Shown: positions 9-16,151 of the stretch, in pieces
How the letters are laid out: each line of letters begins with the position of its first letter
Numbering within the stretch: position 1 is the first letter of the stretch
NCBI GenBank assembly: GCA_964590575.1
Contig: CAZPWM010000073.1
Coordinates: forward strand, 1-16,151
DNA length: 16,151 nt
Source of the DNA: an uncultured archaeon
GTDB lineage: Archaea > Asgardarchaeota > Thorarchaeia > Thorarchaeales > Thorarchaeaceae
Reading direction: 5' to 3'
Notes under the pieces: model-generated
What the model was told of the DNA's origin: nothing
Databases searched by the model: none
What the model saw: only the letters and a program-made list of their open reading frames with translations
Translations under genes and position numbers: made by a program

Positions 9-16
9 TATATATA
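9..16 (+). promoter_or_regulatory. TATA box of the small-ORF operon
   Basis: TATATATA about 33-40 nt upstream of ATG 49, which is archaeal promoter spacing. Confidence 0.55.
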
Positions 17-48
17 CTAAATCTGAGCAGTATTCCTTGTGAAATATC

Positions 49-150
49 ATGGCTCAAGCAACTAACTCACGAACAACATCTGCGCTGAAGAACAACAAGG
101 CAAAGGCTTCGACCTACGCCCTGATCCACGCTTACACCTATCGGAGGTAA
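49..150 (+). CDS. Small basic peptide 1, 33 aa (MAQATNSRTTSALKNNKAKASTYALIHAYTYRR)
   Basis: Hand translation; follows a TATA box; resembles the next ORF; its end CGGAGGTAA contains the SD for ORF2. Confidence 0.65.
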   Translation: MAQATNSRTTSALKNNKAKASTYALIHAYTYRR

Positions 151-154
151 TCGC

Positions 155-250
155 ATGGCACTCGCTAAGGCTGACAAGAACTTCTTGAAGGGTTCCCCTG
201 AAAAGAAATTCTCCACAGACGCTATCACCCGTGCTTACTTCCGGAGGTAG
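155..250 (+). CDS. Small basic peptide 2, 31 aa (MALAKADKNFLKGSPEKKFSTDAITRAYFRR), paralogue of peptide 1
   Basis: GGAGGT SD at 143-148; shared pattern MAxA..LK..KxSTxA...AY..RR; ends CGGAGGTAG. Confidence 0.7.
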   Translation: MALAKADKNFLKGSPEKKFSTDAITRAYFRR

Positions 251-256
251 ACTTGG

Positions 257-373
257 ATGACCCGGTCTTACACTCCTGAAAGCACAACCTCAGATCATGA
301 GGTTCAGAAACCCAAAACCAGAGATTGCAGCAAACTCTCTCTGATTGAAGTACTCGCGTTGGAAGCGACGTGA
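257..373 (+). CDS. Possible small ORF 3, 38 aa (MTRSYTPESTTSDHEVQKPKTRDCSKLSLIEVLALEAT)
   Basis: GGAGGT SD at 243-248; no similarity to ORFs 1 and 2, and it overlaps three hairpins, so it may instead be a structured 3' UTR. Confidence 0.35.
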   Translation: MTRSYTPESTTSDHEVQKPKTRDCSKLSLIEVLALEAT

Positions 374-390
374 GTACTGTACTCTTTTTT
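349..390 (+). terminator. 13-bp hairpin plus T6 tract ending the small-ORF operon
   Basis: AGTACTCGCGTTG(349-361)/GAAG/CGACGTGAGTACT(366-378); TTTTTT at 385-390. Confidence 0.6.
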
Positions 391-457: not shown

Positions 458-579
458 TGGTGCCGAGGACGAGATTCGAACTCGCGAACTCCTACAAGAG
501 TGGATTTCTCCTTGGAGTTGGCCATAGGCAAACTAACAGATCTTGAGTCCACCGCCGTTGACCGCTTGGCTACCTCGGC
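458..579 (-). tRNA. tRNA-Leu(CAA), intron-containing, CCA encoded
   Basis: Acceptor GCCGAGG/CCTCGGC-A-CCA, anticodon stem GTGGA/TCCAC, anticodon CAA (545-543), long variable arm, T-loop TTCGAAT. Confidence 0.95.
506..541 (-). other. 36-nt tRNA intron at canonical position 37/38
   Basis: Removal restores the anticodon loop CTCAAGA; relaxed BHB (CUCA/GGAG) and an internal AGTT-GCC/GGC-AACT hairpin. Confidence 0.88.
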
Positions 580-4489: not shown

Positions 4490-4924
4490 TTATCCTACAA
4501 CAACCTCGTTCACATGTTCTGTCGGACATTTCATACTGTTCGTAACTAAGCAGTATTTTCCAGCTAGCTCAAGTGCCCTCTCAGCTTTAGACTTGAGGTC
4601 TTCAGAATCAACCTCAACTTTCGTCTTCAGAAGCAGTTTTGTGAACTGAAACCCCTTGTCAACTCTTTCAAGTGTGCCATGCCCCTCGCATGAGAATGAC
4701 TTGAAATCGAAACGCATCTTGGTAGTGAAGGTCACAAACGTGGTCATCAAGCAGGAGGTTGCAGACGCAACAAAGAGGTCCTCTGGTGAGATGATTCCCT
4801 CGGGTCCGTCAAACTCAGATGGGGTTGAGATCTCTACCTTTGGCTTGCCATCAATAATCAAATTTCCTATCTGACCATGCTTCCAGTTCACTGTAACCAT
4901 GTATTTATGCATATCATCAGTCAT
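4490..4924 (-). CDS. OsmC/Ohr family protein (paralogue B)
   Basis: SPEDLFVASATSC...AGKYCLVTNSM two-Cys signature; start at 4924 gives 144 aa, the same as its paralogue. Confidence 0.88.
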   Translation of the reverse strand: MTDDMHKYMVTVNWKHGQIGNLIIDGKPKVEISTPSEFDGPEGIISPEDLFVASATSCLMTTFVTFTTKMRFDFKSFSCEGHGTLERVDKGFQFTKLLLKTKVEVDSEDLKSKAERALELAGKYCLVTNSMKCPTEHVNEVVVG

Positions 4925-4977
4925 CTCTATCACTGCAACTCGCAGGTTCAAACCCGCCGAAAAAGGGTTTGGTTACG

Positions 4978-5412
4978 TCATTCAACGACAATATTAGTTT
5001 CATGCGAAACTGGGCATTTCATACTGTTCCCAATAAAGCAGTACTTCGCAGCCAGCTCGAGTGCTCGTTCAATCTTTCTCCGGTTGTCCTCAGAACCAAT
5101 TCCTACTTTGGCTGTCATCTCTATCTTTGTGACCTCGAGACTTCTTCCAACTTCTTCAAGAGTTCCTATTGCATCACACTCGAATGATTTGAACTCGATT
5201 CGCATTTTTCGTGTGAATTCAACAAAACCATTCATGTAACACATCGCGGCTGATGCAACAAACAGGTCCTCTGGAGAATGAAACCTGGCTTCTTCCGGAC
5301 CCCCAGATGGCACCCCTGTCTTAATCGCTACTTTTCCATCAACAGTAAGATTTCCACTCTTACCACCAGTCCAAACAAGTTTCACCGGGAACAACTTAGG
5401 GTCTTCACTCAT
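4978..5412 (-). CDS. OsmC/Ohr family protein (paralogue A)
   Basis: SPEDLFVASAAMC...AAKYCFIGNSM; GGAGGT SD upstream. Confidence 0.88.
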   Translation of the reverse strand: MSEDPKLFPVKLVWTGGKSGNLTVDGKVAIKTGVPSGGPEEARFHSPEDLFVASAAMCYMNGFVEFTRKMRIEFKSFECDAIGTLEEVGRSLEVTKIEMTAKVGIGSEDNRRKIERALELAAKYCFIGNSMKCPVSHETNIVVE

Positions 5413-13808: not shown

Positions 13809-14682
13809 ACTCTAGTTGATCCTGCTAGAGGGCACTGCTATCGGCTTGGGATTAAGACATGCAAGTGGAACGGGCTCGCATCCGAGTCCGTCGCGAACGG
13901 CTCAGTAGTGTCGTTAACCTACCCTGTGGAGATGGACAACGCCGGGAAACTGGCGGTAATCCAGCATAGGAGCATCGTTCTGGAAATGATGTTGCTCTGA
14001 AATGAGTGTTCCAGGTATGTGGGACTTTTCGCCACAGGACGGGACGGCACCGGATCATACTTGTAAGTGGGGTAACTGCCCACTTAGGTTATGACCCGAA
14101 CGGGCGATGTAAGTCGTGGCCCGGAGAAGGGCACTGAGACAAGGGCCCTAGCCCCACGGGGCGCAGCAGTTACGAAACCTCACCAATGTGCGAAAGCACG
14201 AGTGGGCTAAGCCGAGTGATGGGGGATAACTCCATCTGTGGCGGATCCGTAATATGGACCGCTAGAAAGGAGAGGGCAAGGCTGGTGCCAGCCGCCGCGG
14301 TAAAACCAGCTCTTCGAGTGGTGTCCATGATTATTGAGCTTAAAGCGTTCGTAGCCGGTTCTGTAGGTCCCTGCTTAAATCTGGCCGCTCAACGGTCAGT
14401 CTGGTAGGGATACCGCATTACTTGGGGACGGGAGACGGCGACGGTATTCCGTAGGTAAGGGTGAAATCTAATGATCTACGGAGGACCACCAGTGGCGAAG
14501 GCGGTCGTCGAGAACGTGCCCGACGGTGAGGGACGAAACCCAGGGGAGCAAATCGGATTAGATACCCGAGTAGTCCTGGGCGTAAACGATGTCCGTTAAG
14601 TGTTGCATTGGCCACGAGCCACTGCGGTGCTGTAGCGAAAGCGATAAACGGACCGCTTGGGAAGTACGGTCGCAAGACTGAA

Positions 14683-15621
<939 letters not shown>

Positions 15622-16019
15622 GCTTGCGGTTTAATTGGACTCAACGCCGGAAATCTTACCCGCCCAGACAGCCGAATGAGAGCCAGACTGATGATCTTGC
15701 TCGACGAGCTGAGAGCTGGTGCATGGCCATCGTAAATTCGTGCCGTGAGGTATCAGCTTAAGTGCTGCAACGAATGAGATCCCTGCCACCTAGTTGCCAG
15801 CCGGGGGCTTCGGCCCTGACGGGGCACACTAGGGGGACCGCCAGCGAAAAGCTGGAGGAAGGTGGGGGCCACGGTAGGTCAGTATGCCGCGATATGGGCG
15901 GGGCCACACGCGTGCTACAATGGCAAGGACAATGCGTCACAACACCGAAAGGTGAAGTCAATCGCGAAACCTTGTCGTAGTCGGGATCGCGGGTTGGAAC
16001 TCACCCGCGTGAACCTGGA

Positions 16020-16049
16020 TTTGCGTATCACTTCGATGCGCAACAGGAG
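16020..16049 (+). other. 30-nt hairpin BHB intron at 16S position ~1339
   Basis: Removal restores CTGGA|ATCCCTAGTA; helix CCTG/CAGG, bulges GA|T and AG|A, 9-bp stem TTGCGTATC/GATGCGCAA. Confidence 0.9.
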
Positions 16050-16151
16050 ATCCCTAGTATCCGCGTCTCACTATGGCGCGGAGAATACGTCCCTGCTTCT
16101 TGCACACACCGCCCGTCGCTCCATGCGAGCGGACTTGGGGTGAGGTGTCGT

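Follow-up and report, generated by a model that had tools for sequence, protein, structure and literature searches.

The first 390 bases of a 16,151-nucleotide stretch of archaeal DNA (the whole of which is called the window here) form a complete, strongly promoted three-gene operon that encodes two paralogous basic microproteins, A and B, followed by a mostly acidic microprotein, C. The window is the start of contig CAZPWM010000073.1 (C73 below) in the assembly of an uncultured member of the Thorarchaeaceae (GCA_964590575.1, 3.4 Mb in 194 contigs), and it carries an archaeal small-subunit (SSU) rRNA gene and an intron-bearing tRNA gene, as expected for archaeal DNA. An initial annotation had proposed that a hidden, self-contained operon of tandem paralogous small peptides lies at 9-390, and this was borne out, with none of the libraries searched giving the peptides a name. 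Beyond that proposal, C belongs to a separate family, the cassette occurs in several copies and is confined to Thorarchaeota, of which it is a hallmark, and a paralogous form of it is coupled to a gene for a transporter of the major facilitator superfamily (MFS).

Reading the sequence directly, three small open reading frames (ORFs), a TATA box, and a T-run were located within 9-390, all on the forward strand. The TATA box, TATATATA, occupies 9-16 within a promoter and short 5′ leader (1-48) that ends in a conserved GTGAAATATC directly before the ATG of A. ORF A (49-150, 33 amino acids) and ORF B (155-250, 31 amino acids) are basic and are followed by ORF C (257-373, 38 amino acids); these are ORF1 to ORF3 of the initial annotation. 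A is closed by CGG AGG TAA and B by CGG AGG TAG, so that GGAGG at 143-147 plus the TAA stop of A (143-150) makes up the Shine-Dalgarno (SD) sequence of B, 7 nt before the ATG at 155, and GGAGG at 243-247 plus the TAG stop of B (243-250) makes up that of C, 9 nt before the ATG at 257. A T6 run at 385-390, likely an archaeal transcription terminator, closes the unit. The positions first given for the TATA box, the three ORFs, and the T6 run were correct in every case, as were the two closing codon series.

The three frames were compared with those of relatives, and the comparison indicates that A, B, and C are almost certainly all protein-coding and under purifying selection. All three are kept in six syntenic orthologous loci, and each indel that separates orthologues inside the ORFs is a multiple of three in the DNA alignment. 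The ratio of nonsynonymous to synonymous substitution (dN/dS) is 0.37 for A (15 pairs, 6 orthologues), 0.20 for B (28 pairs, 8 orthologues), and, for C, 0.78 in codons 2-21 and 0.15 in the 12 final ones, 27-38 (28 pairs). Together with the in-frame indels, these values uphold the suggestion of protein-level selection, and the dN/dS and profile comparison that the initial annotation had called for thus found the frames conserved in the genomes of relatives. A non-coding origin, as a structured or regulatory RNA or a DNA element with incidental open frames, would be in keeping with the conservation of promoter, leader, and codons 1-15 of A beyond what is expected of coding DNA, and with that of the bases after the C stop (TGAGYRC), but it is highly improbable: differences between orthologues are enriched at third codon positions (68/80/150 at positions 1/2/3 in A, 198/138/363 in B), indels occur in frame only, the frames are open in hundreds of copies with no internal stop in any A or B match listed, no Rfam family covers 1-390, and the B/C junction has no conserved RNA structure (consensus energy -0.3 kcal/mol, 0 compensatory pairs).

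The segment is also present in RNA. Metatranscriptome contigs from three runs in three studies cover 52-267 at 97.5-100% identity, two of them without differences and one with five in 202 bases, and a contig from a fourth run lies on 257-481 at 95% identity. The presence of this stretch was the reason for choosing these runs, and their contigs show neither expression level nor transcript ends; they therefore establish presence in RNA libraries only, do not rank the readings discussed below, and give no meaning to the positions that the contigs of the four runs leave uncovered (1-51, 482-1449, and 1681-2000).

The likeness of A and B, noted at the outset, is that of true paralogues rather than chance, as a profile built from nine paralogues of the same genome recovers them with per-genome E values of 4e-11 and 9e-13. 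A carries a conserved C-terminal face, S-T-x-A-L-x-x-A-Y-x-Y-R-R, while B begins with M-A-L-A-K and terminates in S-T-D-A-I-T-x-A-Y-F-R-R; in both, conservation peaks at the extreme C-terminus and in the first five residues, with a variable middle. Both peptides are hydrophilic, with a grand average of hydropathy (GRAVY) of -0.74 for A and -0.73 for B, and have mean net charges of +5.0 and +5.6, respectively. No membrane segment was found in A, B, or C, and no hydrophobic N-terminal segment, signal sequence, or leader sequence in A or B, for which the highest 15-residue Kyte-Doolittle mean stays below 0 and amphipathicity is only moderate. AlphaFold2 (AF2) models A as one long helix over residues 3-32 with a predicted local distance difference test score (pLDDT) of 74.

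A motif scan combined with a profile search of all small frames identified ten A/B family members at five loci in the same genome. Apart from the window itself on contig C73, these are C29, which carries A, B, and C; C1, where a lone A precedes a set of A, B, and a 56-amino-acid ORF; C43; and C127, with A, B, and an MFS gene. In other genera, A and B stay distinct and keep the order A-B-C at 12 of 14 loci examined, which dates the duplication as old. On C43, a 35-amino-acid ORF (L005 1397-1504) just before the family member there ends in L-D-S-L-Y-Y-D-Y-A-R-I-K, a diverged version of the A/B tail, and is a possible remote member of the family. The third ORF on C1 (L007 8309-8479, about 56 amino acids) differs from C, had no match in Pfam or PADLOC, and contains an N-F-G-x-x-Y-K-Q-N motif that is conserved in another species (L018).

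Searches across Asgard genomes placed the cassette in one family. With the nine-peptide profile, A/B peptides were found in 24 of 24 genomes of the same genus and 0 of 16 from other families; at the level of the order, in 69 of 85 family genomes and in the second family's single genome not at all (0/1); and across the phylum, in 63 of 76 family genomes and 0 of 224 genomes from 29 other Asgard families. A broader profile of 29 peptides from several genera, applied to genomes at least 80% complete, gave 64 of 70 and 0 of 261 for the same comparison. The number of A/B matches per genome is 3-13 in the genus of the window. C was detected in 63 of the 85 family genomes, at 1-4 copies per genome, and largely together with A/B: 62 genomes hold both, 15 neither, seven A/B only, and one C only. 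Among 1.84 billion protein-cluster representatives, the nine-peptide profile matched 30 at E<=1e-3, comprising 29 family peptides of 29-90 amino acids and one unrelated repeat protein; where the source names these relatives at all, it calls them "hypothetical protein". Viral contigs contained no match to C and, for A/B, a single chance match within a 405-amino-acid capsid-like ORF.

The anatomy of the cassette was compared over 16 copies and proved to be highly regular. An SD-like motif precedes B and C in 16/16 cassettes and A in 1/16, and in all 16 it lies within the last codons of the preceding ORF plus its stop, in agreement with the proposal that the Arg-Arg-stop doubles as the SD of the next ORF. 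The A-B spacer measures 4-8 nt and the B-C spacer 6 nt in 15 cassettes and 9 nt in one, the stop of C is TGA in every cassette, and a run of at least four T residues follows within 30 nt of it in all 16. The T-run identified first therefore stands, whereas orthologues do not preserve the hairpin proposed beside it (GAGTAC/GTACTC at 372-384). Of the 32 final codons of A and B, 30 are AGG, two are AGA, and none is CGN, which ties the terminal arginine to the SD of the next ORF; since A/B subfamilies with a single terminal arginine also exist, the caution that the Arg-Arg pair might reflect the SD was well placed, and the terminal arginine is largely a by-product of the ribosome-binding site.

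Upstream of A, the window begins inside a conserved element (TGTGACCC...GTGGCTTCGC) that is whole in orthologues, and 1-48 is better conserved than coding DNA across five orthologous loci. Bases 1-95 cover the promoter, the leader, and A up to codon 15, and match C1:87830-87924 of the same genome at 96% identity; the contig breaks in this stretch, and its unusually low synonymous change hints at gene conversion or a constraint at the RNA level. One end of contig C11 (C11:1-33) repeats bases 1-33 exactly, and this contig, which terminates in a PolX-type polymerase gene, is likely the upstream neighbor of the window. The PolX gene precedes the cassette in 12 orthologous loci, and the series PolX, cassette, tRNA-Leu, helix-turn-helix gene, and kinase gene is syntenic across species in other metagenome-assembled genomes of Thorarchaeota. 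The tRNA-Leu(CAA) gene (458-579, reverse strand) is convergent to the cassette and was identified by Rfam and by ARAGORN with its intron option; it has a 24-nt intron and was missed by ARAGORN at default settings. Also upstream of the TATA box, TGTGAC/GGTCAC half-sites and palindromes such as TGTGA-CCC-TCACA are repeated (L003 1-80 at the C11 end; L002 1440-1510 and 1690-1800 on C1), and TGTGACCC is kept in orthologues. These repeats are a candidate operator for a regulator shared by the cassettes.

ORF C, listed in the initial annotation only as possible, is upgraded here to a conserved gene; it represents a third conserved family in its own right, described here as new. Its N-terminal part is variable and rich in Ser, Thr, Asp, and Glu, and it ends in an invariant L-S-L-x-E-V-L-A-L-E-A-T followed by the stop. 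In the 3.4-Mb genome, V-L-x-x-E-[AV]-T-stop is found at just two places, both directly behind a B peptide. The mean net charge of C is -1.8 with a range of -5 to +4, so that it is mostly acidic, and some copies start with TTG or GTG.

In the window, C lies in the frame of B with two codons between the stop of B and the ATG at 257, an arrangement that raised the question of read-through. Among the 30 loci of the best C matches, B is recognizable in 28, all of which have C in frame after two codons, and the B stop in these is TAG in 26, TAA in one, and TGA in one. In a further 14 loci, selected for long open frames over C, C is out of the frame of B in 11 and in one more with a weak B, and B is absent in two. 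The in-frame rule thus fails in other lineages, which makes it a lineage-bound habit. Programmed TAG read-through joining B to C was rejected on these 11 of 14 loci, on a second in-frame stop at the junction in L017/L069, and on the lack of conserved RNA structure at the junction. Pyrrolysine recoding was rejected as well, since the best PylS_Cterm match scored 22 bits against a cut-off of 178 and TAG ends 534 of 1589 long ORFs. Three "fused" B-C proteins in databases, with Q at the position of the stop, are encoded on single ENA contigs 748-1609 nt long, and we think that the Q is TAG read as glutamine by a gene caller. AF2 renders the B-Q-C read-through product as two separate helices over the conserved C-terminal motifs (pLDDT 62; predicted template modeling score, pTM, 0.22).

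At the paralogous locus on C127, an EntS-like MFS transporter gene replaces C as the third gene, an arrangement that is new here. The gene (PF07690 and PF05977) starts 5 nt after the B-type peptide, and the N-terminal tail of the transporter is acidic and variable. Orthologues were found in 44 of the 85 family genomes at E<=1e-60. In 29 MFS loci examined, 21 from the genus of the window and 8 from another genus, A/B-family peptides lie on the same strand within 700 nt upstream of the MFS gene in 28, and the remaining locus has just 81 nt of upstream sequence. At 20 of the 29 loci, the last peptide ORF either overlaps the MFS start or stops no more than 5 nt from it, and match coordinates place the same A/B-MFS arrangement in three further genera. 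With C, the MFS gene, and the small ORF on C1 all seen after A/B, the third position can be filled by any of these.

Given this architecture, our best guess, a tentative one with a probability of roughly 0.35, is that A and B are trans-acting basic helical microproteins that work with an acidic third partner. Both would be soluble cytosolic peptides with a disordered or extended basic N-terminal part and a C-terminal helix, and this helix would bear a conserved small-xxx-small/aromatic face (A-[IL]-x-x-A-Y) that binds the partner. Tight coupling would ensure that A, B, and the third product are made together in fixed proportion, with the acidic segment of the third product being either C itself or the acidic N-terminal tail of the MFS transporter. 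A and B might then act as small-protein regulators in trans or as accessory subunits of the transporter, and C as a free co-produced partner or decoy. We favor this explanation, which agrees with the fixed coupling, with a helix face that is conserved, and with conserved placement next to one transporter gene. Closely spaced co-directed gene pairs are reported to be enriched for subunits of heteromeric complexes (PMC10666635), and the AF2 helices, which cover the conserved C-terminal motifs, are in line with it too. A complex prediction for A and B with C as the partner scored 0.06 against a mark of 0.32 and is evidence for neither side.

Several observations weigh against this explanation. 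AF2 shows no compact fold (pTM 0.22 and 0.28), and the charge range of C means that charge complementarity is not universal. The MFS orthologue is found in only about half of the family genomes (the 44 of 85 above), seven family genomes match A/B but not C, and the scarcity of synonymous change near the 5′ end of A suggests that the RNA may be constrained too. Moreover, conserved residues that abut the stop, with the next SD and start inside the footprint of the terminating ribosome, would suit a role in cis equally well.

Such a cis role would make A and B leader peptides in a translational relay, in which the nascent C-termini act inside the ribosome at termination and a ribosome paused on the stop covers the next SD and start or hands over to them, thereby tuning translation of C or the MFS gene. 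Each nascent peptide may, in other words, gate initiation of the next ORF in a termination-coupled series. The strongest conservation in A, B, and C alike falls on the last 10-13 residues before the stop, the SD sits within the last two codons plus the stop in all 16 cassettes with spacers of 4-9 nt, and A/B peptides precede the transporter gene in 28 of 29 MFS loci. Leader peptides are known to control MFS exporters (cmlA, fexA), and TnaC and the fungal arginine attenuator peptide are known to stall at termination. We nonetheless consider a relay doubtful, because the window and most cassettes end in the 38-amino-acid C followed by a T-run and a convergent tRNA gene, and a leader would not need two ancient, distinct paralogues in fixed order. 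The N-termini (M-A-L-A-K and M-A-L-T-T-N-S-R across copies) are conserved as well, and in a second genus the MFS-linked A-like peptide retains its N-terminal part better than the C-terminal motif.

The transporter also raises the possibility that A and B are leaderless cationic peptides, a two-peptide signal or antimicrobial, which the MFS protein exports whole or as a processed fragment, with C serving as an intracellular neutralizer at cassettes without an exporter. This would account for tandem paralogous cationic peptides of about 30 amino acids that have no signal peptide, and for the third gene, whose product is a small and mostly acidic peptide at some cassettes and an exporter of PF05977, the "transmembrane secretion effector" type, at others. 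An analogue exists in garvicin KS, whose three leaderless structural genes share a cluster with genes for immunity and transport; its authors state that leaderless peptides require intracellular protection (PMC6412029). The export idea is nevertheless unlikely, given the hydrophilic nature of A and B (GRAVY about -0.74) and their modest amphipathicity. MFS pumps are not known to move peptides of 3.5 kDa. Bacteriocins are usually strain-variable, whereas A and B are under purifying selection, near-universal in the whole family, held in conserved synteny, and found on none of the viral contigs. The full scheme, in which Thorarchaeota secrete A and B as a two-peptide signal or weapon through the EntS-like MFS protein, intact or after trimming, and acidic C restrains them inside the cell, is less likely still.

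The first suggestion for the function of these peptides had been that they are precursors of ribosomally synthesized and post-translationally modified peptides (RiPPs). Several small tandem paralogues with conserved and variable parts are what such precursors can look like, but no radical SAM enzyme, YcaO protein, lanthipeptide synthetase, cyclase, or dedicated protease turned up when the ORFs at the five loci of this genome were scanned (22 plus those of the window), so that the 5-10 kb examined around these loci holds neither a modifying enzyme nor a protease. The upstream flank, where radical SAM, YcaO, or peptidase genes were to be sought, holds the PolX gene that is conserved in 12 orthologous loci, and the conserved part of A and B is a helix-forming C-terminus rather than a leader followed by a variable core. 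These peptides can thus hardly be RiPP precursors. Of the other functions first proposed, regulatory peptides and ribosome- or RNA-binding peptides stay candidates.

That no known family was recognized from the letters alone agrees with all libraries consulted. Pfam, NCBIfam, PADLOC, and PHROGs returned no family at E<=1 for any of the three peptides; a PDB profile search gave 0 matches for A/B and one for C at E 0.67; and the best ESM Atlas score, 0.84, was under the 0.9 taken as lead level. A full-text literature search on small proteins and leader peptides of Asgard archaea and Thorarchaeota, covering main texts, gave no such peptides among the matches listed. Three further classes were considered and rejected. 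A toxin-antitoxin-like pair does not fit, as the spread is not patchy or mobile: the cassette is syntenic across species, is present in 64 of 70 family genomes, and is found on no viral contig. The HbYX proteasome-activating tail has a hydrophobic residue, Tyr, and any residue as its last three, which fits just a B subfamily ending in [LMIT]-Y-R; in the window, A ends in Y-R-R and B in F-R-R, and others end in V-V-R. A PIP-box was ruled out by eye, since the aromatic pair is one residue off register.

Two other features of the window are recorded here. The SSU rRNA match at 13812-16104 spans 2293 nt compared with a model of 1478 positions, and inside it lies an ORF (14749-15588, forward strand) of 279 amino acids with a LAGLIDADG_3 domain (E 7e-14); the insert is an rRNA intron with a homing endonuclease gene. 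At 4490-4951 and 4978-5412 on the reverse strand, tandem OsmC-like paralogues adjoin a methyltransferase gene and a DUF302 gene.

Eukaryotes have no closer known relatives than the Asgard archaea, whose small proteins are almost unexplored because gene callers skip ORFs under about 40 codons. The present work adds two new microprotein families, A/B and C. Both are close to universal in Thorarchaeota and turned up in none of the 29 other Asgard families searched, and both are represented in metatranscriptome assemblies. Their cassette has an anatomy that can be tested, with a promoter, SD-in-stop coupling, and a terminator, and a conserved genetic link to one transporter, and it can mark the lineage, offer a case for testing translational coupling in archaea, and open a way into the physiology of Thorarchaeota. 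Either export or translation gating, if true, would be a first for this group, and secretion of A and B would make them the first peptide-based cell-to-cell system described in Asgard archaea.

Among known systems, small proteins that modulate transporters include AcrZ, which acts with AcrB in E. coli, and sP36, which acts with the ammonium transporter system in Methanosarcina. These resemble the present peptides in being lineage-restricted microproteins that are near, or work with, a membrane transporter, whereas A and B are soluble, basic, multicopy, and mostly away from a transporter gene, unlike membrane helices of the AcrZ type. Leader and arrest peptides (cmlA, fexA, TnaC, and the fungal arginine attenuator peptide) are alike in their conserved stop-abutting residues and in having the next initiation region within reach of the terminating ribosome, with one cassette here standing directly before an MFS exporter gene. 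They differ in that the cassette has two or three tandem peptides of 30-36 amino acids conserved over their whole length, most cassettes end in a microprotein and a terminator, and no attenuator hairpin was found at the B/C junction; a larger gene directly downstream occurs only at the MFS-linked paralogue, while the operon of the window ends with C and the T-run.

Garvicin KS (gakABC with gakIR and gakT; PMC6412029) likewise consists of two to three tandem paralogous leaderless genes for cationic peptides of about 30 amino acids, with a linked transporter gene, which here is found at one paralogous locus, and a small co-encoded protective partner, which is conceivable here. It differs from the present system in that the two share no sequence similarity, that A and B are hydrophilic, chromosomal, under purifying selection, and near-universal in an archaeal family, and that the transporter here is an MFS pump at one of about five loci with no membrane immunity protein. 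The cassette of the window is flanked by PolX and tRNA-Leu, and transport and immunity genes are absent from its cluster. With the closely spaced co-directed pairs of PMC10666635, finally, the commonest coupled arrangement is a 4-nt or 1-nt overlap and the products are enzyme subunits, whereas the spacers here are +4 to +9 nt with a strong SD, which makes fresh initiation as likely as re-initiation, and the products are peptides of 29-40 amino acids. The cassette shares with those pairs a gap of a few nucleotides, a downstream ribosome-binding site inside the upstream ORF, and conservation throughout a lineage.

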